Below are positions 511 to 50,375 of a stretch of 64,000 bases of DNA, piece by piece. Positions within the stretch are counted from its first letter, which is position 1. Each line of letters starts with the position of its first letter. The notes under the pieces are model-generated. The model was not told the DNA's origin, ran no database searches, and worked only from the letters and a program-made list of their open reading frames with translations. Position numbers and translations under genes: made by a program. The stretch comes from a virus, in IMG/VR virus record IMGVR_UViG_3300044695_006284, positions 1-64,000 of that record, one strand, 5' to 3'.

Positions 511-539
511 TTGTCAGTACCTGACATAAATGTTATAAT
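511..539 (+). promoter_or_regulatory. housekeeping-sigma promoter TTGTCA-N17-TATAAT overlapping palindrome TGTCAG-TAC-CTGACA
   Basis: ATG546 lies 6 nt after the -10 (leaderless). Confidence 0.65.
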
Positions 540-1853: not shown

Positions 1854-1943
1854 AAAAAATTATGTCTAATTCTGTATAATTTGTCTCATATAATGAGATA
1901 TTTTATACAGATTTTGACAGATTTTATTCAATATGCATACAAA

Positions 1944-1998
1944 TTCCAGCGTATTTTTACATGCGTCGTAAAGAGAAAATTTGGCCCATAAGATGGGC
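1944..1998 (+). repeat. tripartite element copy 2
   Basis: TTCCAG-N17-CGTAA-N13-CCCAT AAG ATGGGC. Confidence 0.8.
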
Positions 1999-2200
1999 AT
2001 ACAAAAATGGGACATATAGCTAATTAAAGCCATATGCCCCATAGGGGAAATTTATCTATCTAGTAATCTATTTCCAAATGCTTCACCGATCATCATAATT
2101 AATGCAATCATTACAAAAAAGACCATGAATAGTGTCCATATAAATCCTGTTGCAAATAATATGATTAATAGATTAAGTAAGACTATATTCCATGGTTTCA

Positions 2201-2545
2201 TTAGAATGAATCCAAATCCATTATATACTTAGGGTCTCTTACTCTTGTTTCTTTCAAGGAGTCTATTGTTAGGTTTCTATCCACCGCTCCATATTTTGCT
2301 TCCAGCATATCATTGAGCGCATCTGCTAAAAGCAATCCTTCGGATGTATATCCTTTATCCCATTCTGACTTTAATCTAAGGGAATTATATTGGATAATAT
2401 ATCTAACTAGTTCCATTAGTCTGTCTTGGGTATACAAGGTATGTTCAGTTGTTAGTACATTAGCCATTACTGCTGGTGAGAAGTTAGCATTATTTAGATA
2501 GTCTGTTAGTTTTTCTGCCGCTTTGAATTCGTTCGCCTTAGCCAT
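2201..2545 (-). CDS. hypothetical early protein
   Basis: ORF with CGAAAGGCGG RBS and upstream promoter. Confidence 0.8.
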   Translation of the reverse strand: MAKANEFKAAEKLTDYLNNANFSPAVMANVLTTEHTLYTQDRLMELVRYIIQYNSLRLKSEWDKGYTSEGLLLADALNDMLEAKYGAVDRNLTIDSLKETRVRDPKYIMDLDSF

Positions 2546-2565
2546 GAGTTCCGCCTTTCGTTTTG

Positions 2566-2587
2566 ATTATACCATTGACCACTGACA
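2566..2587 (-). promoter_or_regulatory. RecA-NDp/PafBC-type promoter
   Basis: TGTCAG-TGGTCAATGG-TATAAT. Confidence 0.8.
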
Positions 2588-2599
2588 TTTGTAAATGAA

Positions 2600-2630
2600 G
2601 GGGGACCTGCCTCCGAAGAGGAAGGTCCCC
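2600..2630 (-). terminator. UUCG-capped hairpin, probable terminator after the Lsr2-like gene
   Basis: GGGGACCT.CCTC-TTCG-GAGG.AGGTCCCC. Confidence 0.65.
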
Positions 2631-2641
2631 ACAGTTAGTTA

Positions 2642-2791
2642 TTACTTGACGTTCTTCTTGTCTGTGAAGACTACGCCTTCTTGTGCTGCCTTGCTGATAG
2701 CTCCTAGAGCTGCAGCTGAAAAGCGGCCACGCTTGCCCACAGAAATTCCCTGGGCCTTTAGGTATTCACGAGTTGTTGTTGGTGTTGACAT
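2642..2791 (-). CDS. 49-aa stand-alone Lsr2-like DNA-binding domain (absent from the ORF track)
   Basis: MSTPTTTREYLKAQGISVGKRGRFSAAALGAISKAAQEGVVFTDKKNVK; RE....G..V..RGR motif; GAAAGGA RBS. Confidence 0.75.
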   Translation of the reverse strand: MSTPTTTREYLKAQGISVGKRGRFSAAALGAISKAAQEGVVFTDKKNVK

Positions 2792-2837
2792 AGTTTGATC
2801 CTTTCTAGATCGAGTTGTTATATATATTATATCCGAA

Positions 2838-2895
2838 TTTCGGGGTTTTGTAAATAGGGTCGTAAAGCAATATTTTTGCCCGTGTCCCTTAGCTT
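2838..2895 (+). repeat. tripartite element copy 3 (variant TTTCGG)
   Basis: TTTCGG-N17-CGTAA-N13-CCC. Confidence 0.65.
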
Positions 2896-2939
2896 AATGA
2901 CCGTTATGTCCGAATTGTCCATAACGGCCAAAGCTATCT

Positions 2940-3122
2940 TTATTCAGTTGTTAGTTCTTCTACTTGGTATGGCTCTATCTTATCCTTTTTAGCAGCAGCC
3001 TTTACCCATTCCTTTTTTGGGCTTGATACTGCCTTATACCATGCGTCATCGCTATCATCTGCAGTTACTACAATGTAGTAATCCTGAATGATATCTCCAT
3101 AGACTTTATATTGTTTGCTCAT
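2940..3122 (-). CDS. hypothetical early protein
   Basis: ORF in an overlapping operon. Confidence 0.7.
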   Translation of the reverse strand: MSKQYKVYGDIIQDYYIVVTADDSDDAWYKAVSSPKKEWVKAAAKKDKIEPYQVEELTTE

Positions 3123-3256
3123 AGTCCTACCTGCTCTATCTTATCTTTAATTAATTTAGCAATGATGTTGTGCGCCTCGATGTTTTCTGTTTCGGACCCA
3201 CCCCATAGCAAGGCCTGGGCCTTACTAAGTTGATCGTTTAGATACTCATCACTCAT
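3119..3256 (-). CDS. 45-aa hypothetical protein (MSDEYLNDQ...)
   Basis: Fills the gap and overlaps both neighbours. Confidence 0.6.
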   Translation of the reverse strand: MSDEYLNDQLSKAQALLWGGSETENIEAHNIIAKLIKDKIEQVGL

Positions 3257-3563
3257 CTTCATCTTCGTCCTCCTCCTCTTCATCTTCAGGGTCTACGATG
3301 TAGTCCCTGTTTAACATCCATTCTAAAACTTCTTCTTGGTGCTGTTCTGCTCCCCATTCCAAGGAGAACCCCATACCAGCCTCCACGGCCTCACACAGGT
3401 GGTTCCACATGTCTTCTTGGGTTGCCTTGGCAACATAGGTGTCATCCTCTAGAATGCCATTGATTGTCGACCATGTCCACAACCAAACTAATGATAGACC
3501 TAAGTCAGTGCTGTCTAGAATCTCTAGACATTTGTTTAGTTTATCTTTATCTTCAGGCTTCAT
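3249..3563 (-). CDS. hypothetical protein with acidic tail
   Basis: ORF in operon. Confidence 0.75.
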   Translation of the reverse strand: MKPEDKDKLNKCLEILDSTDLGLSLVWLWTWSTINGILEDDTYVAKATQEDMWNHLCEAVEAGMGFSLEWGAEQHQEEVLEWMLNRDYIVDPEDEEEEDEDEDE

Positions 3564-3843
3564 TTGCTACACCAAAATCTGTTCTCTCTTGAATTGCAAA
3601 TGAGAGTTGATATGTTAATCGGTACAGGTCAACCAGCATGTCTAATCGTCCTTCACACTCTGTACGGACCATAGAGTCCATTGCTTCCTCTGATAGTTCT
3701 TCTTGCTCTAAAGCGCTTGTTAGGTCTTGCTCAGCAATAAGCATTAGATTCTTTAGTTCTCCGTGCAAGATATCAAGACCTGATACTCCTGCATTGACCA
3801 TGCGTTGCAAATGGGGCGGGAGCCCAATGTCTTCTTCATTCAT
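3553..3843 (-). CDS. hypothetical early protein
   Basis: ORF in operon. Confidence 0.75.
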   Translation of the reverse strand: MNEEDIGLPPHLQRMVNAGVSGLDILHGELKNLMLIAEQDLTSALEQEELSEEAMDSMVRTECEGRLDMLVDLYRLTYQLSFAIQERTDFGVANEA

Positions 3844-4046
3844 TAGATTACCTCATAGTTCACTAGTGTTGATTCATTTAAGTTGTTTGCCCAATCAGGC
3901 TTTCCTTCTACCCAATCATATTCAATATCGATATCTCCTCCGCCTTCGGCAGGAGCACCAATTTTTATTACCAATTCTGTCCCGTCCTCAAAAAAGATTT
4001 GTTCGACGGCGGAACGATAAGTAACTTCTCTAGATGATATATTCAT
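3843..4046 (-). CDS. hypothetical early protein
   Basis: AACGAAAGG RBS. Confidence 0.75.
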   Translation of the reverse strand: MNISSREVTYRSAVEQIFFEDGTELVIKIGAPAEGGGDIDIEYDWVEGKPDWANNLNESTLVNYEVI

Positions 4047-4234
4047 TATTCATACCTTTCGTTAGTAGAGTTCATTATATCAGTTGCCACTGACAATAAA
4101 TGCCTGGTTGCATAAATCTGTCCCTCAATATCTACTACATGTAAAGACATAGGATTTTCTTCTAGGTCTTGTTCTAAACTAATTAGATGTAATTTAATAT
4201 ACTCTAAGAATGCAGATGACTTAGTCATTATCAA
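4046..4234 (-). CDS. hypothetical early protein
   Basis: ORF; its 3' end contains the next promoter. Confidence 0.65.
   Translation of the reverse strand: MIMTKSSAFLEYIKLHLISLEQDLEENPMSLHVVDIEGQIYATRHLLSVATDIMNSTNERYE
4074..4095 (-). promoter_or_regulatory. RecA-NDp/PafBC-type promoter (inside CDS)
   Basis: TGTCAG-TGGCAACTGA-TATAAT. Confidence 0.75.
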
Positions 4235-4403
4235 AATATCCTTCTGCCCATAGCCCCTGGAGGAAGTCCTGTGCCTTTAGTAGCCCGTCCACAATTGGAT
4301 CTTCATCAACACGAACGATATCTGATTTAAGAATATAGAAAAGCTTGGCGTCATGCATAGCATTTCCCATTTCATCTATATCTGTTTTAGTATATCCTAG
4401 CAT
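4221..4403 (-). CDS. hypothetical early protein
   Basis: GGAGG RBS. Confidence 0.7.
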   Translation of the reverse strand: MLGYTKTDIDEMGNAMHDAKLFYILKSDIVRVDEDPIVDGLLKAQDFLQGLWAEGYFDND

Positions 4404-4543
4404 TCAATTGCCTCCATATATTTAAGCATAGTGTTGAGTGTTATGTGAATATAACAATCACAATCATCTGATGTATCTCTGTCATCAAAATGGATTAAGT
4501 TGTCATCATAGATATAATCAATTAGTTCTTGGCTGGTAATCAT
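4397..4543 (-). CDS. 48-aa hypothetical protein (MITSQELID...)
   Basis: Fills the gap with overlaps. Confidence 0.55.
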   Translation of the reverse strand: MITSQELIDYIYDDNLIHFDDRDTSDDCDCYIHITLNTMLKYMEAIEC

Positions 4544-4752
4544 AAGCAATACTCATCTCCTTCGATATATCCATAATATTCATTGTATGATTGCTTTAAG
4601 TTATCAGGAGCAAATTGCATAAATCTCCATTCAGCATATGCTTCCCCTTCATCTAAATTAGATTGATTCCAATCTTCAAATAATGCTTGCTCAATATCTA
4701 CTTGAATTGCTCCAAGGATATGTTCTCCTACTGTATCTGTAAATGCTTCCAT
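4540..4752 (-). CDS. hypothetical acidic protein
   Basis: GAAAGGCGG RBS. Confidence 0.7.
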   Translation of the reverse strand: MEAFTDTVGEHILGAIQVDIEQALFEDWNQSNLDEGEAYAEWRFMQFAPDNLKQSYNEYYGYIEGDEYCL

Positions 4753-5486
4753 TATGCTTCCGCCTTTCTATATTCGGGTACTTTAGTGTCTAAGTATATC
4801 TTATGGGTCTGACAAATTGCTACAGCCTCTAGGTCAGCATTGCCTAGCCAGTTGCAGTTGCCACAGATTTCACCGCAGTCATTGTCGCAGTATTCCATTT
4901 GGTCGGTTGCATCACAATCACGGCACATGTTATCGTATTCTGATTCTGATATAACTTCTCCACGGAGGAATTCCATTTCCCCACCCCAACCTGTTTCTTC
5001 TTCGTATGATAAAGTAAATAGTAGATTAGGATACTGTGCAGATAGTTTAGAGATAGCGCCAAGAGGTCGTGACCATGCAGTGTTAAAGTTGTAATGAACT
5101 ACATAGTTCTCGCCATTTTCTGCTTCTTCAATAGTTGTATCAGGATACTTATTATCCTCGGCTACAGCAACATCCCACTTGGTTCCCCACTCACGCACAT
5201 TAAAGTTGTACCAGTCATTGGTTTCAAACTTCATTGCCTGAGAAAAGTCGGTGGAACGAGGAGGCTGTCCATGATATTCCTCATCAGTAATACCAGCATC
5301 TCTATAGTTATAGATATTATGAAAAGCAAAGATAGGATTAACATACTTAGTCTGCTTGACATCATATGATAAATCACCTAATGCAGTAATAGAATAAACA
5401 AATGGCTTATTCATCTGCTTGATTAAAGATTTAACTTGCTCAGGATTACCTTCAATAGTTAATCCATTAAATACCCAATTTGGCAT
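4752..5486 (-). CDS. YubB/DUF1281-like ferredoxin-like domain protein with C-terminal Cys cluster
   Basis: Start reassigned to MPNWVFN; WY.FN...WGTKW and FNTAWS.P motifs. Confidence 0.75.
   Translation of the reverse strand: MPNWVFNGLTIEGNPEQVKSLIKQMNKPFVYSITALGDLSYDVKQTKYVNPIFAFHNIYNYRDAGITDEEYHGQPPRSTDFSQAMKFETNDWYNFNVREWGTKWDVAVAEDNKYPDTTIEEAENGENYVVHYNFNTAWSRPLGAISKLSAQYPNLLFTLSYEEETGWGGEMEFLRGEVISESEYDNMCRDCDATDQMEYCDNDCGEICGNCNWLGNADLEAVAICQTHKIYLDTKVPEYRKAEA
4793..4814 (-). promoter_or_regulatory. RecA-NDp/PafBC-type promoter (inside CDS)
   Basis: TGTCAG-ACCCATAAGA-TATACT. Confidence 0.7.
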
Positions 5487-5513
5487 TTTATATCCTTTCG
5501 TTGATATGTTCCA

Positions 5514-5535
5514 ATTATACAATGGACCACTGACA
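5514..5535 (-). promoter_or_regulatory. RecA-NDp/PafBC-type promoter
   Basis: TGTCAG-TGGTCCATTG-TATAAT. Confidence 0.8.
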
Positions 5536-5601
5536 AATGGAATAGAATTGGCATGTGATACATGCCACATGATTCAGCTTTGTGGTCAACATCACAGCAA
5601 A

Positions 5602-5661
5602 TTCCAGGGAATATAATTGACAGTCGTAAAGACAATATGCTACCCTCATGTCTTTGAGGGC
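5602..5661 (+). repeat. tripartite element copy 4
   Basis: TTCCAG-N17-CGTAA-N13-CCCTC...GAGGGC. Confidence 0.8.
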
Positions 5662-5690
5662 AAAGAAAAACCCCCAGCTTAACTGGGGGT
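5662..5690 (-). terminator. Rho-independent terminator
   Basis: CCCCCAG-TTAAG-CTGGGGG-TTTTTCTTT. Confidence 0.8.
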
Positions 5691-5809
5691 CTTGAATAAT
5701 GGCTGCCTGGATTTCCAACGAAAGAAATAAACCCGCTTTACTTAGCGCCTGGCCCGAAGACTGATAGACGCACCATTATATTTCCTATTAAAACCAGGAC
5801 CTTAGTCCT
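5662..5809 (-). ncRNA. candidate ~145-nt structured sRNA with anti-leader loop
   Basis: Extended -10 TGGTATAAT (5816-5824); several stems; intrinsic terminator at 5662-5690. Confidence 0.5.
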
Positions 5810-5816
5810 AGTCTAA

Positions 5817-6182
5817 TTATACCATAACTAGTCGACTGTATTTGTCTACGAATGATGCTAAGGATGAACTAAATACAACTGTTTTTAGGTCTTCCTCGTA
5901 TAGCGTAAATGTTTGGTTTGTCCAATCAATTACAGGGACCTTGTGTTCGTTGTCTCCCAATTGGTTGACATAGATACCCCACGATAATGTTTGGTTCCAG
6001 TCTTCTCCAATTAGATGTGATATAGCAATGCGTGTTGCATATGACTCATCCTGCCAACGGGACTCCGCTGCCTGCACTGCATTTGCTAGTTTGGCTAGCA
6101 TGTCATACCCAGCCCAGTGTCCATATAGAAATACTACATTTTCCTTGGAATCTCTGAATCCAAAGTTTGCTCTGTCGCCCAT
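5817..6182 (-). CDS. hypothetical phage protein (MGDRAN...LYGHWAG)
   Basis: ORF with GGCGG RBS. Confidence 0.8.
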   Translation of the reverse strand: MGDRANFGFRDSKENVVFLYGHWAGYDMLAKLANAVQAAESRWQDESYATRIAISHLIGEDWNQTLSWGIYVNQLGDNEHKVPVIDWTNQTFTLYEEDLKTVVFSSSLASFVDKYSRLVMV

Positions 6183-6184
6183 TT

Positions 6185-6385
6185 TTATTCCGCCGTTTCT
6201 AAAGTAGGTATTGCTAGTTCTATCTTGTCTAATTCTATCACTTCATAGGCTACCTTGTCTAGGCCTGCCTTGTTTTTATTGTAGTGGTGACCGCAAAAAG
6301 CTAACTCACCATCTACTAGTTTAACTAGATACATTGCATCTGCTGATCCACATGCATCACATGGAATGAACTCTCTGTCTCTCAT
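6185..6385 (-). CDS. small Zn-binding protein (CDAC...FCGHH)
   Basis: Cys/His motif. Confidence 0.75.
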   Translation of the reverse strand: MRDREFIPCDACGSADAMYLVKLVDGELAFCGHHYNKNKAGLDKVAYEVIELDKIELAIPTLETAE

Positions 6386-6528
6386 AGAGCACCGCCCTCA
6401 ATCATCTCAGAAAGACGGTCAAGAATCCAAGAATCAATATCGTTGATATCAATTTCTGATAACTTCTCCATTATTTCTTCACGGGCAAACTTATACCCGT
6501 CATCCCAGCCATCCTTATAGTCTGACAT
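6382..6528 (-). CDS. 48-aa hypothetical protein (MSDYKDGWDDGY...)
   Basis: AGGAG RBS; ATGA overlap with next gene. Confidence 0.65.
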   Translation of the reverse strand: MSDYKDGWDDGYKFAREEIMEKLSEIDINDIDSWILDRLSEMIEGGAL

Positions 6529-6537
6529 AATCTCTCC

Positions 6538-6741
6538 TTAATAACCTGTGGTTTCGTAGTCTGATACATAAGATTCAGTTAAGTTATACTTATCTCTAAG
6601 TCTACTTACTTTCTCAATACTACCAGTTCCAATGTTGAATGTCAATGCAGACATTGCTTGTGGGTCAAGTCCTGTTATTTGTGCATCCCAATAGGCCATC
6701 TCCATGGATAGCCTATCAGGAGCGGTAAGTTCAAAGTACAT
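6538..6741 (-). CDS. hypothetical early protein
   Basis: ORF. Confidence 0.7.
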   Translation of the reverse strand: MYFELTAPDRLSMEMAYWDAQITGLDPQAMSALTFNIGTGSIEKVSRLRDKYNLTESYVSDYETTGY

Positions 6742-7358
6742 TAGCCCTCGATTCTATCTACAGATGATGATAGCCAACTAATACCGTCTGAGTCATAAGA
6801 AACAGTGTCAAAATCAATATCATGAATTAGATTGTGTGCAGACTCTTCATCACGAGCATTAACTGTAATTGAATATAGAACTGTTACTTCTAGTTCAAAC
6901 TCATTTGTTAGTTCAAATCCACAGATGCCAGCAATTTCTTCTGCTTGAAATTCTGTAAGAGATTCGTCATCAAGGCCTTCGAGTGTGAATACCTTCATGT
7001 CATCACGCAATTTGCTTAGAGTTCCTGCAGTTGCATAATCACGCTGAGTTATACGCTGGATGTGCTCTTCTAACTGTGTAATGCGGGCTTTGTTATCTAC
7101 TAACTGTGACTCAAGAAATTCCCGTGTCAAGTAGTGATTATCTGTTGTTGTTTCCATTTTATCCTCTTTCGTTGTTGTTGGTGTAATTGTAGCATGCTCC
7201 ACTGACAATAATGTGGTCTTGCGTCCGCATGGGCATGTGAGTTCTGTCACACCTGAAGGAAAGCCAAATCCATCAGATGATGTTAGTTCTATTAATGAAT
7301 CGCATTCATCTGGGTCACAGACAAATGTATACTTGCTTGATACTAGTTCGTTGGTCAT
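6741..7358 (-). CDS. Zn-ribbon plus coiled-coil protein with an internal in-frame start at 7157
   Basis: Leaderless ATG7358; internal promoter and RBS precede ATG7157. Confidence 0.7.
   Translation of the reverse strand: MTNELVSSKYTFVCDPDECDSLIELTSSDGFGFPSGVTELTCPCGRKTTLLSVEHATITPTTTKEDKMETTTDNHYLTREFLESQLVDNKARITQLEEHIQRITQRDYATAGTLSKLRDDMKVFTLEGLDDESLTEFQAEEIAGICGFELTNEFELEVTVLYSITVNARDEESAHNLIHDIDFDTVSYDSDGISWLSSSVDRIEG
7186..7207 (-). promoter_or_regulatory. RecA-NDp/PafBC-type promoter (inside CDS)
   Basis: TGTCAG-TGGAGCATGC-TACAAT. Confidence 0.75.
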
Positions 7359-7365
7359 AAAGAGA

Positions 7366-7387
7366 ATTGTACCAGGTCCCACTGACA
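7366..7387 (-). promoter_or_regulatory. RecA-NDp/PafBC-type promoter
   Basis: TGTCAG-TGGGACCTGG-TACAAT. Confidence 0.8.
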
Positions 7388-7398
7388 TTATCAAGGAT

Positions 7399-7456
7399 TT
7401 CCAGGGGATATTTATGTGAGTCGTAACACACTTTTTGCCCCCTTAGCTTTGAGGGC
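7399..7456 (+). repeat. tripartite element copy 5
   Basis: TTCCAG-N17-CGTAA-N13-CCCTTAGCTTTGAGGGC. Confidence 0.8.
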
Positions 7457-7459
7457 GCT

Positions 7460-7536
7460 TGGCGATCCATAACGGACTTGAACCGTCGACCTCTACCGTG
7501 ACAGGGTAGCGCTCTAACCAACTGAGCTAATGGACC
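7460..7536 (-). tRNA. tRNA-Asp(GTC)
   Basis: Cloverleaf; CTACC-CT GTC AC-GGTAG anticodon arm; GTTCAAG T-loop; encoded CCA. Confidence 0.95.
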
Positions 7537-7549
7537 TGGAAAAAATTGT

Positions 7550-7576
7550 GAGCAGTTTTTATTCATGCTCAGGAAT
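7550..7576 (-). ncRNA. 27-nt H-type pseudoknot copy A
   Basis: ATTC-CTGAGCAT-GAAT-AAAAAC-TGCTC. Confidence 0.6.
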
Positions 7577-7584
7577 TTATTTAT

Positions 7585-8592
7585 TTAGAACGCAGAAATT
7601 AATTTCTTAATTTTATTTTTTTCTGCGGTTAGAATTGGGTCAAACCCTGATGCACCCGCCATGAGTGTTTCAGAATTTCCACGACCTGAACGATAGTAAT
7701 CAAGGCGTTCAGTAAGTGCATTGAATGCACCCCACTTTGTTCCCTTGATGTTAGCGTTAGTTGGTGAATTGTGATACAACTCGTCAAGCAACACGACTTT
7801 GTTTTCCCACTTAGTCAATGCAACTTTAGCAGCATCCTTATCAGGCTTAGGATAAATTGTCTGAATTAACTTTGAGAATTCAGCATCAGTGATTGATTGA
7901 GAATAAAGAGCCTGAGCCTCTTTCTCGAATTCATCAAAGTACCCAAGAGCAAGCCCAAGAGTTTCACGAGCAACTTGGATGCGACCTTCAACAGATTGCG
8001 TGTGGCGAATCTTGAAAGATTGCTTAGCATTCTTCATTGCAAGGTTAAGAGTGTTTTGGCATACAACACGAACAGGAGTAACAGCAGCCTGAACAGCAAC
8101 TGACCCGTCGTGAGATGTCCAAACAATTAGATACAACTTAGTTGCATCATTTGCGCCTTGTGGGTCAAGCACCATTGTGCGAGGAATATCCACTGTACCG
8201 AATACAACCTTACCGCTACGAAGTGAGCCAGCAGATTCCCAACGGCAATCTGCATTCGCATCGTGAATTGCATCTGCGAATGCAAATAGTTCCTCATTCT
8301 GCACAGGCTTGTAACGCTTTCCAACAGTTGCAAGAACATCAGTTCCATTGTTGAATGGGTTGTCACGAATAACTAATTGAGCATTAGATACATCATTCCA
8401 TGTATCTGAAATATGGTCAGTTAGTGGAGACAAGCGAACATTCCAGTTGGAAAGTTTTGCCTCATCTAACATCATTTGAGTTGTAACATCTTCATCTTGT
8501 GTAAAGATGCGATTTGCAAGGTTGTGCCATGCAGGTGCGCCACGAAGTGCGAATGCAACTTCGCCATTTTCCATTTCTAGATTATGAGCCAT
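7585..8592 (-). CDS. DUF932 (phage/plasmid LGT_TIGR03299-like) protein
   Basis: MAH...AWH.L, Y.PVQN, SHDGS, TPVRVVCQNTL, GT.WGAFNA.TE..D motifs. Confidence 0.9.
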   Translation of the reverse strand: MAHNLEMENGEVAFALRGAPAWHNLANRIFTQDEDVTTQMMLDEAKLSNWNVRLSPLTDHISDTWNDVSNAQLVIRDNPFNNGTDVLATVGKRYKPVQNEELFAFADAIHDANADCRWESAGSLRSGKVVFGTVDIPRTMVLDPQGANDATKLYLIVWTSHDGSVAVQAAVTPVRVVCQNTLNLAMKNAKQSFKIRHTQSVEGRIQVARETLGLALGYFDEFEKEAQALYSQSITDAEFSKLIQTIYPKPDKDAAKVALTKWENKVVLLDELYHNSPTNANIKGTKWGAFNALTERLDYYRSGRGNSETLMAGASGFDPILTAEKNKIKKLISAF

Positions 8593-8623
8593 TTTTTACC
8601 TTTCGTTTGTTTGATTAGTTGTA

Positions 8624-8645
8624 AGTATAACAGACCCCACTGACA
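8624..8645 (-). promoter_or_regulatory. RecA-NDp/PafBC-type promoter
   Basis: TGTCAG-TGGGGTCTGT-TATACT. Confidence 0.8.
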
Positions 8646-8702
8646 TTGTCTAGGATTAATTACAATATGTCCGAATTGATCCATGTGATTAATCTCACAA
8701 AA

Positions 8703-8760
8703 TTCCAGGGTTATCCACAAGTGGTCGTAACCCTGTGGATAACCCCTTAGCTTTGCGGGC
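8703..8760 (+). repeat. tripartite element copy 6 with two DnaA boxes
   Basis: TTATCCACA at 8711, TGTGGATAA at 8734. Confidence 0.85.
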
Positions 8761-8789
8761 CAGCTGCATATGCAGCTGGTGTTAGATCT

Positions 8790-9044
8790 TTACAGACCTA
8801 ACTCATCCCTAGTTAATTGGTTTTTGCGATTGAAGTTAATAACTTCGGACGGGAGGTAAAGAGCAGTTGTCTTAGTCTTCTTCAATGTATCATAGACATA
8901 AGCACGAACATCCCCTAAAAAGTTTCCTCTATTAGAGAATGCTAACTCAGTTAAATAATCTTTATCTACACCTTGTTCTGAATAGATTGTTACATCATTT
9001 GCTTTGTTTGCATCATAGATTTCTACTCTGAAACGATTTTTCAT
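8790..9044 (-). CDS. hypothetical early protein
   Basis: AAAGG RBS. Confidence 0.75.
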   Translation of the reverse strand: MKNRFRVEIYDANKANDVTIYSEQGVDKDYLTELAFSNRGNFLGDVRAYVYDTLKKTKTTALYLPSEVINFNRKNQLTRDELGL

Positions 9045-9079
9045 TTTGTTGCCTTTGTTAGTAGTTGTCCCAAAAGGGA

Positions 9080-9106
9080 GAGCAGTTTGGCGACATACTC
9101 AGGTCG
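9080..9106 (-). ncRNA. 27-nt H-type pseudoknot copy B
   Basis: CGAC-CTGAGTAT-GTCG-CCAAAC-TGCTC; stem covaries with copy A. Confidence 0.6.
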
Positions 9107-9115
9107 TTGGATTAT

Positions 9116-9538
9116 TTACAGATAACGAGCAATAGCATTGTAAGTGCTTGTGCTTACTGTTTCCTCATCTGTCATCTTTAGAATACGAATTGCGTTTTCC
9201 AATTCCTCTTTCATCTCATTGTATGAGTGGCGGTGGAGAACTTCGTAGTCCTTCTCAGGCTCTTTAGGAAAGTCTGACTCATTAACTGTTAAATCGAAAT
9301 CAACATTGAGTGTCTTATTCCATGAGCGATAGTTTGTGCGGAAGTTTTCTGCCTTAGCAAAATTAGCCATAGCGAACTTTCCTACTTCTTTGCGCCACTT
9401 CTCCATAGCCTTTTCATGCTTTGCTTCGTTGGCTTCTTGTGATGCGTAATCGGCATTTAACTTTGTCAAGCGAGTTTCTAGTGCCTTGATTACCTTTGGT
9501 GTTGCGATTTTTACGCTAATTGCTTTCTGTCGTGCCAT
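9116..9538 (-). CDS. hypothetical coiled-coil early protein
   Basis: Strong RBS and upstream promoter. Confidence 0.85.
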   Translation of the reverse strand: MARQKAISVKIATPKVIKALETRLTKLNADYASQEANEAKHEKAMEKWRKEVGKFAMANFAKAENFRTNYRSWNKTLNVDFDLTVNESDFPKEPEKDYEVLHRHSYNEMKEELENAIRILKMTDEETVSTSTYNAIARYL

Positions 9539-9577
9539 TTGTTTCCTTCTTTCGTTGTGAGTTGGGTTGATGAAGTA

Positions 9578-9599
9578 ATTATAGCAGGGGGGTCTGACA
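9578..9599 (-). promoter_or_regulatory. RecA-NDp/PafBC-type promoter
   Basis: TGTCAG-ACCCCCCTGC-TATAAT. Confidence 0.8.
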
Positions 9600-9624
9600 T
9601 TTCTGCGACCCCCCTCCCATTAAA

Positions 9625-9807
9625 TTAAACGCCTAGTAGTGTTTGAGCGGATACGGAAGTCCAACGAGTTTCCTTGTTGGGCATTTCCAATAGCACACGC
9701 ACCGAGCCAGATGTTTGTGGGTGGATTTCTTTAATCACACCTGTTTTCTTTGACTTGAGGGTAGTGAATAAATCGCCTACCTGATACAACTTGTCGTTGA
9801 TTGTCAT
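9625..9807 (-). CDS. small SH3/KOW-like protein
   Basis: YQVGD....K..TGVIKEI pattern. Confidence 0.65.
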   Translation of the reverse strand: MTINDKLYQVGDLFTTLKSKKTGVIKEIHPQTSGSVRVLLEMPNKETRWTSVSAQTLLGV

Positions 9808-9837
9808 TTATTGCCTCTTTTCTTTGTTAGGTTGGTA

Positions 9838-9859
9838 ATTATAGCATTGGGGTCTGACA
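9838..9859 (-). promoter_or_regulatory. RecA-NDp/PafBC-type promoter
   Basis: TGTCAG-ACCCCAATGC-TATAAT. Confidence 0.8.
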
Positions 9860-9908
9860 TTAGTCTAGCCCTGTCTCAGTATTTGAGAAAGTTATTGTGT
9901 GACCTTAG

Positions 9909-10169
9909 TCACTCAGGTAGCCAAGCGTGTAAGTGGTGAGCCTCGATGATCGCCCACACTGGCGCACATGTCTCACCTTTGTAAGTAATCCCATCAGGCA
10001 TTTCGATAGTTTCATCCCACATGTCATCATGAGCAAAATCTATTGCTTCGATACATACTGGCACCATAGAAAGTGGAACGGGTGGGTAATGATTACCCTG
10101 TAAGTGATAGCCTAGTGCTACTTCTAAATCTAATTCTTCAGATAAATCTAATGCTGTATTGTATCCCAT
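9909..10169 (-). CDS. hypothetical protein (HL.GNHYPPVP motif)
   Basis: ORF with AAGGTGG RBS. Confidence 0.8.
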   Translation of the reverse strand: MGYNTALDLSEELDLEVALGYHLQGNHYPPVPLSMVPVCIEAIDFAHDDMWDETIEMPDGITYKGETCAPVWAIIEAHHLHAWLPE

Positions 10170-10372
10170 TATTCTGCCACCTTTAGTATTGCGTAAGAGC
10201 CATTAGCATTTATTTCATCAAGAATTGGTTGTAGGCGTGGTGCTACTAAATCTTTTAGCATAGACTCTAGCATAAAGATACGAGTATCCTCATCAAGTGC
10301 CATAACCTGTTGAGTTACTGGATGATTGTCTGCAAACTCTGTTACAAACTTTAGATTGTGTTCTACTATCAT
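10169..10372 (-). CDS. hypothetical early protein
   Basis: AACGAAAGG RBS. Confidence 0.75.
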   Translation of the reverse strand: MIVEHNLKFVTEFADNHPVTQQVMALDEDTRIFMLESMLKDLVAPRLQPILDEINANGSYAILKVAE

Positions 10373-10403
10373 TTTTATTGCCTTTCGTTGTTGGTATAAG
10401 AGT

Positions 10404-10425
10404 ATTATACACTAGGGCACTGACA
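10404..10425 (-). promoter_or_regulatory. RecA-NDp/PafBC-type promoter
   Basis: TGTCAG-TGCCCTAGTG-TATAAT. Confidence 0.8.
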
Positions 10426-10480
10426 AATTGTGCAACACGCCCAAGCTTTATCTTATTTATTTTGTGATTAATCTCACAAA

Positions 10481-10539
10481 TTCCAGGGGGTTGTGGATAA
10501 GTCCCGTAAGCCTGTGGATAACCCCGCAGTATTGCGGGC
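10481..10539 (+). repeat. tripartite element copy 7 (N18) with two DnaA boxes
   Basis: TGTGGATAA at 10492 and 10513; CCCGCA-GTAT-TGCGGG hairpin. Confidence 0.85.
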
Positions 10540-10554
10540 CTGCATAGCTATGCA

Positions 10555-10686
10555 TTACTCTGCATATTTATTTTTATGTTTGATCTTTCGAAAATATTTT
10601 TTCTTATTACGAACAGGTTGCGCCGCATTACTGCGGCGCAATTCCTGAATTCGTTTTACTTTATCTCGAAGTGAATTTTGGGACAT
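10555..10686 (-). CDS. 43-aa highly basic protein
   Basis: MSQNSLRDKVKRIQELRRSNAAQPVRNKKKYFRKIKHKNKYAE. Confidence 0.55.
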   Translation of the reverse strand: MSQNSLRDKVKRIQELRRSNAAQPVRNKKKYFRKIKHKNKYAE

Positions 10687-10852
10687 GATACCCACTCGCT
10701 TCGTGAAATCGTTTTACATCAAATCGGTCATTATCTTTTGCGAACATCTCCGCAAAGTCATTAACCATTTTAGAAAATAACGCTGGGTGCGCTTTATCGC
10801 TTGCGAACTTTAGAATTTCTGCAACCGCGACATAATCTTTTCGTGTCATCAT
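10661..10852 (-). CDS. hypothetical protein (MTRKDY...DN.RFD..RF)
   Basis: ORF. Confidence 0.75.
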   Translation of the reverse strand: MMTRKDYVAVAEILKFASDKAHPALFSKMVNDFAEMFAKDNDRFDVKRFHEASGYHVPKFTSR

Positions 10853-11052
10853 TTTACTGCCACCATTCCACTACGATAGAAAACTTTTGTATAGCATTTG
10901 CCTGTTGGCGTGTAAATATTTACAGTTGAGTATTCGTTAGCAAAACCCCAATCGGTGAATAAGAAAAAGTTTTCCCACGCACCAAATTCGCTTTCGTATT
11001 CTGCTGACCAATGAGGAGCGTGTCCGTCATAAGCACAAGTTAATTTATACAT
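10849..11052 (-). CDS. hypothetical early protein
   Basis: ORF. Confidence 0.7.
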   Translation of the reverse strand: MYKLTCAYDGHAPHWSAEYESEFGAWENFFLFTDWGFANEYSTVNIYTPTGKCYTKVFYRSGMVAVK

Positions 11053-11195
11053 TAGTCATTTTCTCCGTTCCAAAATAGTGAGCCGTCATCTACGCAATCG
11101 CAAGGTTCGCAATCAAAATCATTATCATCACCAAAAAAGATTACTCCGTGTCCGTGGCAATCTTGGCAATCTATTGTTAATACTGAGTTAATCAT
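11052..11195 (-). CDS. 47-aa Cys-rich protein (CQDCHGHG...CEPCDC)
   Basis: TAATG overlaps on both sides. Confidence 0.6.
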   Translation of the reverse strand: MINSVLTIDCQDCHGHGVIFFGDDNDFDCEPCDCVDDGSLFWNGEND

Positions 11196-11359
11196 TAGTG
11201 TTGTTCCTCGCAATCTTTGTCATAGTCAAATCCGCAAAAGTAGCAACCCATAAATTCTAGGTGTTCGATACAGTAATACTTAAATTGACTTTCATCACAA
11301 CAAAAATGTTGCTCGTCTGCGATTTCATAGAAATCGGTTTTGTCGATTATGTTTAACAT
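11195..11359 (-). CDS. 54-aa Cys-rich protein
   Basis: AACGAAAGGA RBS. Confidence 0.65.
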   Translation of the reverse strand: MLNIIDKTDFYEIADEQHFCCDESQFKYYCIEHLEFMGCYFCGFDYDKDCEEQH

Positions 11360-11387
11360 AGTTTTCCTTTCGTTTGTTTATTTAGTT

Positions 11388-11409
11388 ATTGTATCAGTTA
11401 GCACTGACA
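11388..11409 (-). promoter_or_regulatory. RecA-NDp/PafBC-type promoter
   Basis: TGTCAG-TGCTAACTGA-TACAAT. Confidence 0.8.
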
Positions 11410-11480
11410 AATTTTGTGAGGGTTCTTACTTACGACATTGGGCGAGGACTCCCTCTAAACTGCCCCTGTTTCGATTTTAT

Positions 11481-11693
11481 TTAATCGGAAGTTTTTACGG
11501 CTAAATAGCGATAAGTATCTTTTAGATTTAGCGGTGCAGAATAAATTGGGCGTACCTGCACTTTGTAAGTATCTGCATTTGCATACCAGACACTATCATT
11601 TTTTTCTGCTGAAATAATTTCTCCAGTAAGAGAATTTGAGCGATACATTTTTCCTACAAGTAGGCTTTCGATAGTATAGACATTTGCTGACAT
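11481..11693 (-). CDS. hypothetical early protein (MSANVY...)
   Basis: Start reassigned using the CGAAAGGCGG RBS. Confidence 0.75.
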   Translation of the reverse strand: MSANVYTIESLLVGKMYRSNSLTGEIISAEKNDSVWYANADTYKVQVRPIYSAPLNLKDTYRYLAVKTSD

Positions 11694-11725
11694 TTGAGTC
11701 CGCCTTTCGTTTGTTGATAGTAGCA

Positions 11726-11747
11726 ATTATAGCGGATAGCACTGACA
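11726..11747 (-). promoter_or_regulatory. RecA-NDp/PafBC-type promoter
   Basis: TGTCAG-TGCTATCCGC-TATAAT. Confidence 0.8.
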
Positions 11748-11833
11748 AAAGATAATTACTAGCCAGTAATTCCAAATAATGAGACGCTCAAGCCGTGTGA
11801 TAAAAATCACAAAATCTCGGGCGTGTCGGAAAA

Positions 11834-11891
11834 TTCCAGGGGTTGTGGATAACCCCCGTAACCCTGTGGATAACCCCGCTCTTTTGCGGGC
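11834..11891 (+). repeat. tripartite element copy 8 with two DnaA boxes
   Basis: TGTGGATAA at 11844 and 11865; CCCGC-TCTTTT-GCGGG hairpin. Confidence 0.85.
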
Positions 11892-11924
11892 GCATCAGCT
11901 TTTGTCAAGCCGACACGCCTCTGC

Positions 11925-12724
11925 TTATTCGAAATCCTTAAAAATTTCTTCAAGCTTTAAGATTTGCTCATCTGTAAGATGATCAATTTCAATTGCTTTT
12001 TCAAATCCAAAAAAATCCATTATTCATTTTCCATTTCTGCTAAATAATCTTCATGTTCAATTAAGCCGACTGAAAAAGCGATTGGGTCGCAACATTCCAA
12101 AATTTCGGCGGGAGTAAAAGTAGAGTAACCAATTTTTACAGTAGGGTAACAGTCATTTAGTAAATCAATAAAGCTTTCCTTGATTTCTAAATCTTTTTCA
12201 AATTGTGTTTTCATTCGCTTAACTCCAAATCTCTTATGTCGGCAACATAAACATTATTTTTATCTATTCCGTATTTTAATTGAAATTGAAATGTATCAAT
12301 AGCCTCATCATAGGATTCAGCCTCGACATTTATAAAAGCATTAAACTCATAAACTGGCATGATTACCAACACTCCTCACAAGTAAATTTAGTAAAGTCTG
12401 CATCTTTTGCAAAAATCTCTAAATAGTTATTCGCACAAATTGTGCATGATAGCAAATAAGTTTTTGCCTTTTGATACATGTATGGATTAGAGTTAGATAA
12501 TTCTCTATTCTCTAAAACCTCTGATGAAATTAAAATACTCATTTAGTTAAACTCCAATCGGTGTAAAATGGTAAGCGGTCATAGTCATCATAGAAATAAA
12601 CTCTATCTATGTTCTGCTCGCATGTTTCGCAGAAAGTGTATTCGACATCTACGCCCATGCCATAGGTAGTAGATACGCTCTCCATGTGTGGAGTGTGTGT
12701 ATGTGTATTTGTTAGTGTAGTCAT
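11925..12724 (-). CDS. operon of five small hypothetical genes (12724-12539, 12542-12363, 12360-12211, 12214-12020, 12020-11925)
   Basis: Abutting or overlapping ORFs; several have CxxC motifs. Confidence 0.6.
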
Positions 12725-12756
12725 TTGAGACCACCTTTCTTTTTCGTTATGGTAGT

Positions 12757-12778
12757 ATTTTACCACGGGGGTCTGACA
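12757..12778 (-). promoter_or_regulatory. RecA-NDp/PafBC-type promoter
   Basis: TGTCAG-ACCCCCGTGG-TAAAAT. Confidence 0.8.
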
Positions 12779-12847
12779 TTTATCTACCTACTAGCCAGTA
12801 ATTCCAAGATGTGAGACGCTCAGCCTATGTGATAATTATCACATAAA

Positions 12848-12905
12848 TTCTGGGGTTTTCCACAGATGCCCGTAACCCTGTGGATAACCCCGCTCTTTTG
12901 CGGGC
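12848..12905 (+). repeat. tripartite element copy 9 (TTCTGG) with DnaA boxes
   Basis: TTTTCCACA at 12856 (one mismatch), TGTGGATAA at 12879. Confidence 0.8.
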
Positions 12906-13058
12906 CAGCTCGACATTGTCAAGCCGACACGCCGTTAGGCTAGTGTGACTCTTGCCACATCTCTCGCATCTCTGCCTTAAAGTCATGCCATACGATCCTC
13001 GCCATGTATAGGGCGGGTAGGGCAAGGGATAACTGCACTAGTGTAGTAAGTAGTCTAT

Positions 13059-13524
13059 TCATGCGGTCACCTTGATGTCCATTACATTAGCGGTAAACTT
13101 TTTAACCTTGCCTAATTCGCTATCGTTGAGCGATTGTATTACATGGTCAATAGCCTTAGCCTCATGCGCTACATTGTCAATAGAGATTAGTTTAGAGCCT
13201 TGCCAAATTGAGTAAGTGATAGTCATTATTAGTTCTCCCATGTTAGTTGGTATAGTTTTGCTAGTTCTTCATCATCTGAGTCATCAAATTCATCTAGTGG
13301 AGGTTGTTCCTCATCTACCTCATCGAGGTATGCGTATGCGTCTGCGACATCTGATTGGATAGTGTCCCACTTAGACACGCTGTTAGTTTCGTATGAGTAT
13401 GCGTATGACATTATTTATTCATCTCCTCTGCGATAGCCTTAGACTTAGTTAGTGCCTCTAGGGCTACTGATAGGGAGGCAAGGCGTTGAGCCTCTACCAT
13501 TTGCTTGTATTCATCTAGTGTCAT
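13059..13524 (-). CDS. three small hypothetical genes (13524-13411, 13411-13229, 13226-13059)
   Basis: Coupled ORFs, each with an RBS. Confidence 0.65.
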
Positions 13525-13555
13525 TATTCTGACCTTTCGTTGTTGTTATGTTGTA

Positions 13556-13577
13556 AGTGTAGCATGGGGGTCTGACA
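13556..13577 (-). promoter_or_regulatory. RecA-NDp/PafBC-type promoter
   Basis: TGTCAG-ACCCCCATGC-TACACT. Confidence 0.8.
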
Positions 13578-13616
13578 AATTGGGGAGGTTAGCCTAGTGT
13601 GTCGGTGTGAGGTGTG

Positions 13617-13787
13617 TCACCTTCCTCGCTTAACTCGAATAGCCTCGGCTTGCGCTAACTGCTCAGGTGTAGCGTTGCGGAAAGCCTGTACGCTCTCCCT
13701 TATCCAAGGTGACTTAGCCATAGCCTTTTCGTGAGCGATAGCGTTGCGCTCTTGTTGTTCTTTTCTAATTCGTTCTAGTGTATTCAT
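13617..13787 (-). CDS. first gene of the leftward block, hypothetical
   Basis: Start reassigned to MNTLER using the AACGAAAGG RBS. Confidence 0.7.
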   Translation of the reverse strand: MNTLERIRKEQQERNAIAHEKAMAKSPWIRESVQAFRNATPEQLAQAEAIRVKRGR

Positions 13788-13822
13788 TAGATGATTACCT
13801 TTCGTTTTGTTGTTATACCTTA

Positions 13823-13844
13823 AGCATAGCATGGGGGACTGACA
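13823..13844 (-). promoter_or_regulatory. RecA-NDp/PafBC-type promoter
   Basis: TGTCAG-TCCCCCATGC-TATGCT. Confidence 0.8.
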
Positions 13845-14505
13845 AATTGAGGCACATCTCGGGCGTGTCGCAAAAAAATCTTTGTGATGCTAATCACACT
13901 CACGCTCAAGCCCGAAAGAATAATGGGCGCACTATCCAAAATGTCCGTTTTGTCCAGGGTGTGTATCATACATGTAAAAAATATATTAACATTTTCTTAA
14001 ATCTGAAAAAGCAGTCGACTAGAATATAAAGCGGTGGTACAATAGAGCTATGACATGTTCCTTTTGTGATAAGTATGCATACACAAGTATGATCAATAAC
14101 CTTGGCGTAAAATATTATCTTTGCGAAACACATATAAAACAAAACAGCACAATCTCTTGACTTTGATAAAAACTAAATGCTACACTTAGTTTGCTTTGTG
14201 GGGGGCTTACCCTGAAACTCAATATGTACCAGATAACATCTGTGGATATATGTTCCAGGAATTGCTTTCTCTATCTTTCCAAAAAGAAAAAATTTGGGGG
14301 GTAGGGGGGCTTTCCTAAAATCTAATATCCCCAGATAAAATCTATAAAACAAGATAAAAAACATAAGACAAATAGGTGAATAGAGACTTTACATATTCAC
14401 TTAAAAAAACGGGGGTAGAACAGTGAAACTTCTTTGCCAAATAGCCATAATAACTGTCATTACTTTTATCCTTGGTATACTCATACAGATAATAGGCTAA
14501 TATAA

Positions 14506-14580
14506 GGGCCTATAGCTTAATCTGGTTAAAGCAATTGTCTTATATGCAATCGACTTTGGGTTCAAATCCCAATAGGCCTA
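14506..14580 (+). tRNA. tRNA-Ile(TAT)
   Basis: GGGCCTA/TAGGCCT acceptor stem; ATTGT-CT TAT AT-GCAAT anticodon arm; GGTTCAAATCC; no encoded CCA. Confidence 0.85.
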
Positions 14581-14584
14581 CTTG

Positions 14585-41168: not shown

Positions 41169-41513
41169 ATGGACATTAAAAGAATTAACGCTCAAATGAA
41201 GTCTGGAGAAACCAGGCTTGGAGTGTATGTCTGGGAAATGCCTGATGGAAGATGGGTCGGAGACGAAGACAATAACTTTTTGTCTATATCGTCCATGATT
41301 GGAAACAAAGAAAGAATTGCTTTGCTTGCAACAGCCGTGGCACACTATGGGATCGATGTTGGCCAACCTAAGTTTATTGAGGGAAGCCGACAAATTGATG
41401 ATGAAGAGTTTGAGTATCAAAAGCAAAGATTAAGATGGGGCCTAACTCCAGATCCACTGGACATCGGTGTTCACAAGGAAGAAATGGCTAGACTAAATGG
41501 TGGTAAAAAATGA
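41169..41513 (+). CDS. hypothetical protein preceding the portal gene
   Basis: ORF with TGGTAAAAT -10 upstream. Confidence 0.75.
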   Translation: MDIKRINAQMKSGETRLGVYVWEMPDGRWVGDEDNNFLSISSMIGNKERIALLATAVAHYGIDVGQPKFIEGSRQIDDEEFEYQKQRLRWGLTPDPLDIGVHKEEMARLNGGKK

Positions 41514-50040: not shown

Positions 50041-50375
50041 ATTTAGCCGCTTTAGAAGGACAAGTTTTTCTTCTGGGTCACTGGAAGAATTACGAGGAAT
50101 TAGAAGAAAATTTATCAATGCCAGAATTGGTTCAAACCATAACAGCGATAAATGAAAAAGAGCATAACCAAAGAAAATTTGCAGCGTCACTAAAAGGAAT
50201 ACAATTAGATGATGGTGCAGAAGAAAAAGAAAAAGGTTCTACCTTTGAAGATATCCAAAGAAGAGCACTTGGAATAAATGCATCAGCAGATGATGTTGTT
50301 GGTTTACAAGGGCCCTTTGCAGCGAAAGCTGGATTTGGAATTGGCGCAGGGTTAGGATACTCTAGGAGTAATTAG
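49708..50375 (+). CDS. tail assembly chaperone G-T via -1 frameshift at C CCA AAC (49998-50004)
   Basis: In-phase XXXYYYZ heptamer; the -1 frame is open to 50375. Confidence 0.75.

Follow-up and report, generated by a model that had tools for sequence, protein, structure and literature searches.

The DNA analysed here, called the window below, is the first 64 kb of the 98-kb IMG/VR virus record IMGVR_UViG_3300044695_006284, which has a completeness estimate of 78%. The GC content of the window is 38%. Near its start is a block of small genes on the minus strand, and the element in question is the motif TGTCAG-N10-TANNNT, which is found ahead of these genes and is of the type of the promoters activated by the actinobacterial DNA damage regulator PafBC. 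Plus-strand genes flank it on both sides: those at 1-1991 converge with the block, and those from 14506 onward diverge from it. Only four families are recognised in it, namely DUF932, DUF1281_C (a ferredoxin-like domain), DUF7455 and one Lsr2-like open reading frame (ORF). The block and its motif sites, with the genes that follow each site, are:

1866..14364, minus strand: block of about 12 kb, about 41 small ORFs of 37-335 amino acids (aa) in about 15 transcription units
2566..2587, minus strand: PafBC-type promoter (TGTCAGTGGTCAATGGTATAAT); genes 2201-2545 and 2052-2201
4074..4095, minus strand: PafBC-type promoter (TGTCAGTGGCAACTGATATAAT); gene 3843-4046 and the small ORFs after it
4793..4814, minus strand: PafBC-type promoter of the ACCC subclass, no TG extension; 4540-4752 and the following ORFs
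5514..5535, minus strand: PafBC-type promoter; gene 4752-5486 (DUF1281_C ferredoxin-like domain)
7186..7207, minus strand: PafBC-type promoter inside ORF 6741-7358; short form of this ORF from 7157 and four downstream ORFs including DUF7455 (6185-6385)
7366..7387, minus strand: PafBC-type promoter, ATG 7 nt after the -10 box; leaderless long form of ORF 6741-7358
8624..8645, minus strand: PafBC-type promoter; DUF932 gene 7585-8592 and probably tRNA-Asp 7460-7536
9578..9599, minus strand: PafBC-type promoter of the ACCCC subclass; 9116-9538 and 8790-9044
9838..9859, minus strand: PafBC-type promoter of the ACCCC subclass; 9625-9807
10404..10425, minus strand: PafBC-type promoter; 10169-10372 and 9909-10169
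11388..11409, minus strand: PafBC-type promoter; 11195-11359 and three more small ORFs
11726..11747, minus strand: PafBC-type promoter; 11481-11693
12757..12778, minus strand: PafBC-type promoter of the ACCCC subclass; 12539-12724 and the following ORFs
13556..13577, minus strand: PafBC-type promoter of the ACCCC subclass; 13411-13524 and the following ORFs
13823..13844, minus strand: PafBC-type promoter, the first of the block; 13617-13787
11671..11692, minus strand: sixteenth match to the pattern, in the first codons of gene 11481-11693 (ATGTCAGCAAATG...)

The pattern matches 16 times in the 64-kb window, always on the minus strand and always within 2566-13844. Dinucleotide-preserving shuffles contain 0.90 matches on average and 4 at most, and none of 100 shuffles reaches 16. 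Judged by their sequence 15 of the matches are real promoters, and the match at 11671 is a chance one. The other 34 kb of the record contain no TGTCAG match, and the relaxed form TGTCRG adds a single match (TGTCGG) at 41371, inside a coding region. Copies with one mismatch are as numerous as expected by chance, the motif family is therefore crisp. On its gene strand the block contains the TGTCAG hexamer itself 17 times, against 2.5 expected, and on the opposite strand not at all; the hexamer stands away from a -10 box in the block only once, inside a gene.

A first-pass annotation of this DNA, made from the sequence alone, had listed 15 coordinates for the motif, and every one of them is correct. 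It had called the sites co-oriented without giving a strand; they do share one strand, and this is the minus strand, the strand of the genes that they serve. It had also placed each site just upstream of a ribosome-binding site or start codon. A conserved (A)ACGAAAGG-type Shine-Dalgarno sequence and an ATG 15-35 nt after the site are present at 14 of the 15 sites, and at the remaining one (7366) the ATG lies 7 nt past the -10 box. The scan of the full record and of its relatives that the annotation proposed bears it out in part: nothing is found beyond the block except the coding match at 41371, and the motif is kept in close relatives, but the cultured Streptomyces relatives described below do not share it.

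In relatives of the phage a logo of 244 distinct sites reads W-TGTCAG-T-G/C-S-nnn-CTGC-TA(T/C)AAT. The TGTCAG element is asymmetric, with no second half-site, and the location of a -35 element carries no information (at most 0.44 bit per position). The spacer is N10 in 331 distinct sites and N8 in five, and takes no other value. Conservation was also measured without reference to the motif, by a 180-nt BLAST search around each site that returned 404 distinct orthologous sequences. Identity in these is 96-100% in TGTCAG and 95-98% at the key -10 positions, compared with 66-84% in the spacer and 69-94% in the flanks. A second promoter subclass has TGTCAG followed by ACCC or ACCCC (sites 4793, 9578, 9838, 12757 and 13556).

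The sites are not canonical sigma-A promoters, having no TTGACA-like hexamer 16-18 nt upstream of the -10 box; the sequence TTGTCA, although similar to TTGACA, is present only 11 nt from it. Matches of sigma-70 type in the region number 53, compared with 53.0 in shuffles. No LexA boxes were found near the phage promoters. The first-pass annotation had described promoters outside the block as ordinary -35/-10 types, and a few near-perfect canonical promoters do occur elsewhere in the genome, for example TTGACA-18-TATAAT at 91388 and the following one in the window; the phage therefore has two promoter classes.

511..539, plus strand: canonical sigma-A-type promoter TTGTCA-17-TATAAT with TG extension, a contrast case

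In this promoter the -35 hexamer TTGTCA is followed by G, so that the word of the -26 box stands at the normal 17-nt spacing.

Chromatin immunoprecipitation sequencing gave the consensus tGTCgg(N10)tA(N3)T for PafBC promoters, with the 5' element at -23 to -28 and no -35 element (PMC8635444). The GTC is strictly conserved and is contacted by R46 and R50 of the helix-turn-helix (HTH) domain of PafB (PMC8635444). The 15 phage sites have the sequence and geometry of such a PafBC-dependent (RecA-NDp) promoter: the GTC-containing element TGTCAG is present in 15 of 15, at a fixed N10 from TAnnnT, and there is no -35 consensus. The earlier assignment to this promoter type thus stands, sequence and spacing being equal to the published consensus (PMC8635444). 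The likeness to the promoters of Mycobacterium and other Actinobacteria (PMC8635444, PMC6789036, PMC11804915) covers the whole 22-nt bipartite motif, with its GTC hexamer at -28 to -23, its 10-nt gap, its sigma-A -10 box TAnnnT and the missing -35 element, and it extends to the flanks, which have T ahead of the box and TG(G) behind. The phage differs from the hosts in carrying 15 copies within 12 kb of a lytic-type genome, ahead of small unknown genes and not of repair genes. Its -10 boxes are near consensus and have the TG extension, and no LexA box comes after them. In contrast to the mycobacterial consensus all six bases of the phage TGTCAG are conserved, which makes the phage element the stricter one.

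The phage is probably an abundant, uncultured lake phage of actinobacteria, with a host lineage that is deduced as set out below. Its portal protein is 56-59% identical to portals of Streptomyces phages of the Stanwilliamsviridae, whose genomes are about 130 kb, and it has replication genes of its own for DnaE, DnaB, primase, a divergent RecA and class II ribonucleotide reductase (RNR). No near-identical phage genome was found in GenBank. Its DUF932 gene is present on at least 252 IMG/VR contigs, and the best 80 of these (91-100% identity) carry 6-18 motif copies each on the gene strand; the phage group is very common in metagenome assemblies. Five near-complete relatives of 110-117 kb, three of them with terminal repeats, have the motif restricted to a single block of about 11-13 kb with 14-16 copies. 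All five encode a WhiB-like protein with four cysteines and the motif GVWGG; by synteny this gene would lie just past the end of the present record, which accounts for its absence there. In a more divergent relative (G402:C31, RNR protein 79% identical) the block has only DUF932 in common with that of the window, at 71% DNA identity, and 12+2 promoters of the same design stand ahead of different genes. Marine relatives (G403, G404 and G405, RNR identity 59-64%) are represented by short contigs, and no convincing motif cluster was found on these. The cultured Streptomyces phages Muntaha, Yaboi and StarPlatinum have 0-1 motif matches each, without enrichment, so the motif is not a trait of the whole family.

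Candidate host genomes of the class Actinomycetia were reached through an Aquiluna metagenome-assembled genome (MAG) that holds a mis-binned contig of the phage group. They comprise 30 small genomes of 1.2-1.5 Mb, mostly single contigs, whose sampled loci have 42-56% GC (mostly 42-52%); by their size and GC these are probably acI/Nanopelagicales and their kin. WYL domains, which PafB and PafC contain, have matches in 400 of the 401 genomes sampled from the class, a tally that takes in the unpublished genomes G020, G025, G032 and G245, on which no specific claim rests. A mycobacterial host is ruled out because of the 38% GC and because the group is so common in metagenome assemblies.

The motif is found upstream of recA, once and on the recA strand, in 28 of the 30 small genomes. 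The promoter has the form TGTCAGTGG...CTGC-TAnnnT, typically T-TGTCAG-TGG-CGC-CTGC-TACCTT, with the LexA box TCGAACAGATGTTCG directly after it, and it agrees with the phage consensus also at positions that the search pattern left free. TGTCAG is the form of the box in 22 of these 28 recA motifs and in 88% of the distinct sites of the phage relatives, compared with 2 of 19 high-GC (62-78%) genomes carrying the recA motif; high-GC relatives use TGTCGG. An A at position 5 of the box marks the small-genome group. The phage TGTCAG-ACCCC subclass has counterparts among the high-GC recA promoters (TGTCGG-ACC). In the small genomes the PafBC box is joined to the LexA box (TGTCAGTGGCGCCTGCTACCTT-TCGAACAGATGTTCG), and both controls therefore act on one promoter. 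The two genomes of lowest GC among the 30 have no exact match at recA: one has TGTCCT with unchanged spacing, and in the other no GTC box can be recognised.

The candidate host had also been proposed for a search for pafBC, and genes for both subunits are present in this lineage with the arginines that read DNA. A tandem pair of WYL genes, pafB-pafC, followed by tatC, is found in five small Actinomycetia genomes; this is the mycobacterial gene order. Details come from one of them (G078), in which PafB has WYL and WCX domains and its best PDB matches are the PafBC-RNA polymerase chains of M. smegmatis and the Arthrobacter PafBC (E about 1e-32). The sequence RMFERDK is identical, with R46 and R50 kept. 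PafC has HTH_PafC and WYL domains, and tatC is the next gene.

Each of the small genomes contains only 7-14 motif matches, so the motif is a specific signal and not a general promoter type, and 4-7 of the matches are gathered in a single island some 20-35 kb long. Two islands were examined (G078:C1:449001-468000 and G215:C1:415001-434000), with 5 and 6 motifs within 19 kb. Most motifs there have an ATG 6-7 nt after the -10 box, as in leaderless genes and in indirect agreement with transcription starts 6-8 nt downstream of that box, while the C5 methylase and GHKL ATPase genes have a short leader with a Shine-Dalgarno sequence; leaders with Shine-Dalgarno sequences are predicted for the phage mRNAs, which differ in this from the mostly leaderless island genes. 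The island genes encode C5 and N6/N4 DNA methylases, a GHKL ATPase, trypsin-like membrane peptidases and unknown secreted proteins, and Fpg/Nei and an XPB-like helicase are encoded near the islands. This suggests that small low-GC actinobacteria have a very small PafBC regulon that includes recA and restriction-modification-like genes.

Three other routes to the host were tried and given up. A protein search with the RNR returned only close phage relatives, and a genome scan with it yielded nothing but phage contigs that had been wrongly binned, in MAGs from many phyla, with no host signal. WhiB is too divergent for a similarity search, the sole match at E<=1e-12 being another phage-like contig in the Aquiluna MAG. 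Contigs of the phage group occur in GTDB species-representative MAGs labelled Saccharibacteria, Bacteroidia, Brevundimonas, cyanobacterium, Aquiluna and others, public MAGs that an abundant phage has contaminated.

The best explanation of these findings, to which we give a probability of about 60%, is that the PafBC of the host reads the 15 phage promoters. The host would be a low-GC freshwater actinobacterium, probably acI/Nanopelagicales-like. Stress leaves the amount of PafBC protein unchanged (PMC6789036), and an arriving phage therefore finds the factor in place; its activating ligand is single-stranded DNA (ssDNA; PMC11804915). The ready-made PafB/PafC heterodimer would bind ssDNA during infection and insert between sigma-A region 4 and the -26 element ('sigma adaptation'), and the host RNA polymerase would then transcribe the 12-kb block, whose genes (about 41) are small and mostly unknown. 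End resection, phage replication and host DNA breakdown are candidate sources of the ssDNA. Of the host recA promoter the phage may have taken over the activator half but not the LexA operator; promoters without this operator would respond to the ssDNA alarm without SOS repression. They are presumably strong, with their near-consensus -10 boxes, and may have a basal activity independent of PafBC. We infer who the host is, that the promoters depend on PafBC, where the ssDNA signal comes from and when the block is expressed, and the 'early' timing of the block, its trigger and the titration of PafBC, all proposed in the first-pass annotation, are speculation.

Several observations weigh against this explanation and give room to others. 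The -10 boxes of the phage are near consensus (TATAAT, TACAAT, TATACT; mostly TGnTAYAAT), 11 of the 15 sites have the TG extension, and a weak -35-like hexamer is present 17-18 nt upstream of the -10 box in 5 of the 15, so that with such -10 boxes and TG extensions the promoters may work partly without PafBC. Extended -10 promoters of near-consensus type can work without an upstream element. The motif is not enriched in the cultured Streptomyces relatives, and the hosts of these do have PafBC. The host itself is deduced, with contigs of the group mis-binned across phyla. Finally most phage proteins belong to no known family, and an activator of unrecognised fold encoded by the phage is possible.

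Were the sites self-sufficient extended -10 promoters used by sigma-A polymerase alone, TGTCAG would be a repressor operator, a decoy for PafBC or a signal unrelated to initiation. The -10 boxes of the phage fit this, those of host PafBC-type promoters being much weaker (TACCTT, TAGCGT), and a decoy has numbers in its favour: against 14-16 sites per phage genome stand 7-14 matches per host genome, some of them due to chance, and such numbers would allow titration. We nevertheless think this account improbable. An invariant N10 is what one expects of an element read within the initiation complex, and an operator or decoy standing by itself would not be expected to show it; the element is also asymmetric, and in the block TGTCAG is never found apart from a -10 box, bar the one copy inside a gene. 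A somewhat better case, though still an unlikely one, can be made for a phage-encoded activator that reads TGTCAG, either an analogue of MotA/AsiA or a WhiB-type protein binding sigma-A region 4, with an unrecognised fold. In that case mimicry or coincidence would account for the resemblance to the PafBC box, and the block would, with the same low probability, be a middle class dependent on earlier phage genes, whose factor the canonical promoters could express first. The middle promoters of phage T4 share the layout, with a box about 12 nt from a sigma-70 -10 box and no -35 element (PMC8635444 draws the parallel), and the WhiB-like protein of the group is a candidate. The annotation had asked whether the phage has a WYL or HTH activator of its own. 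WYL domains are absent from all five near-complete relatives, no WYL domain or sigma-70 region 2 was found in this record or four near-complete relatives, and AsiA (PF09010) and the MotA C-terminal domain (PF09158) had no match at E<=1 in the same set; for HTH domains there are two ORFs with sub-threshold matches. One of 46 aa, at 87188-87328 (plus strand) of the record and outside the window, has such matches to Sigma70_r4, TetR_N and HTH_38 and is possibly a small phage DNA-binding protein; the other, of 160 aa, has one to HTH_17. Against a role of the small ORF, it was not detected in the relative G409, which still has 14 promoters. The match to the recA promoters also reaches the TGG after the box, the CTGC before the -10 box and the lineage-specific A at position 5, and with this likeness beyond the core the use of a host factor is the simpler explanation. 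Very unlikely, lastly, is a host outside the Actinobacteria, with a motif from the unrelated transcription system of another phylum. Related contigs do occur in MAGs labelled Saccharibacteria, Bacteroidia, Brevundimonas and cyanobacterium, and most Actinobacteria have a GC content far above 38%, but contigs scattered over many phyla are the picture expected of mis-binning, and small Actinomycetia genomes of low GC (42-49%) exist that have the same box at recA. The phage group also carries actinobacterial markers: WhiB in 5 of 5 near-complete relatives, the Lsr2-like and DUF7455 ORFs of the block and the Streptomyces-type portal. All 12 Actinomycetia genomes tested have DUF7455, 11 of them once and one of them twice; the 14 control genomes lack it. 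As DUF7455 is conserved in the Actinomycetia, the phage gene 6185-6385 may be a mimic or competitor of the host protein.

Control by host PafBC could go further than the use of its promoters, although this is a tentative idea that we consider doubtful: the phage group may have made PafBC the master switch of a gene class, so that the block fires together with the host response and PafBC is drawn off. The lineage-specific -26 box would have been copied to 14-16 sites per phage, more than the total of a streamlined host. Probable takeover or counter-defence genes would be expressed along with the PafBC response of the host, which would include recA and the island with DNA methylases and GHKL ATPase, while replicating phage DNA would draw PafBC away from the host promoters.

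Among the closest known systems are the T4 middle promoters, with a MotA box at -30 and a sigma-70 -10 box. In both cases a class of phage genes is marked by a box that lies roughly a helical turn upstream of the -10 box for the housekeeping sigma factor; this box stands in for the -35 element and requires a protein linking DNA to sigma region 4. Both the activator (MotA) and the co-activator (AsiA) are encoded by T4 itself, whereas no homologue of either was found here and the box is identical to that of a host activator. The WYL regulators DriD, CapW and BrxR and a Moraxellaceae activator (PMC9186387, PMC11662680, PMC9122601, PMC12392091) use the same switch of ssDNA and WYL domain in DNA damage or infection; those circuits consist of host genes for DNA damage and anti-phage defence, while here the target promoters are on a phage, the would-be user of the alarm. 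Phage and prophage genes under LexA/SOS control are likewise tied to the host DNA damage response, by de-repression through cleavage of LexA or CI and mostly in prophage induction. Unlike in these, control here would be positive and independent of LexA, there is no SOS box, and the phage is large, with no sign of lysogeny in the parts examined.

In the published full texts found on PafBC together with phage, mycobacteriophage or prophage, no phage promoters of PafBC type are described; this literature covers PafBC in phage resistance and WYL regulators of defence. The view of the first-pass annotation that such promoters were undescribed agrees with these texts. Sigma adaptation by PafBC is so far known only as a host DNA damage response, mainly from mycobacteria. 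If the explanation is true, a phage uses an ssDNA sensor of WYL type as activator of its own genes, in contrast to T4 with its own sigma-remodelling proteins, and arrays of TGTCAG-N10-TAnnnT would be a signature of phages that infect PafBC-bearing actinobacteria. Phages of these streamlined lake bacteria, which lack CRISPR, are hard to assign to a host (PMC10202952). PafBC biology would also be extended to the most abundant freshwater bacteria, in which the regulon seems very small and seems to include DNA methylases and a GHKL ATPase besides recA.

Further features were noted in and around the block. The promoter at 4793..4814 is embedded in the 3' end of gene 4752-5486. At 6741-7387 (minus strand) two promoters are nested: 7366-7387 precedes a leaderless protein of 205 aa and 7186-7207 one of 138 aa with a Shine-Dalgarno sequence. 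Two tRNAs, and no other known RNA families, were found in the region of the block:

7460..7536, minus strand: tRNA-Asp(GTC), inside the block
14506..14581, plus strand: tRNA-Ile(TAT), at the divergent junction

An ORF of 3778 aa occupies 50375-61711 (plus strand) of the window. A composite repeat, whose existence was confirmed, is found 40-120 nt upstream of four of the promoters (8684-8765, 10463-10544, 11796-11896 and 12828-12910). It consists of a CRP/GlxR-like palindrome, TGTGA-N6-TCACA, followed by an inverted pair of the DnaA-box-like word TTATCCACA, and this pair can form an 11-bp hairpin.

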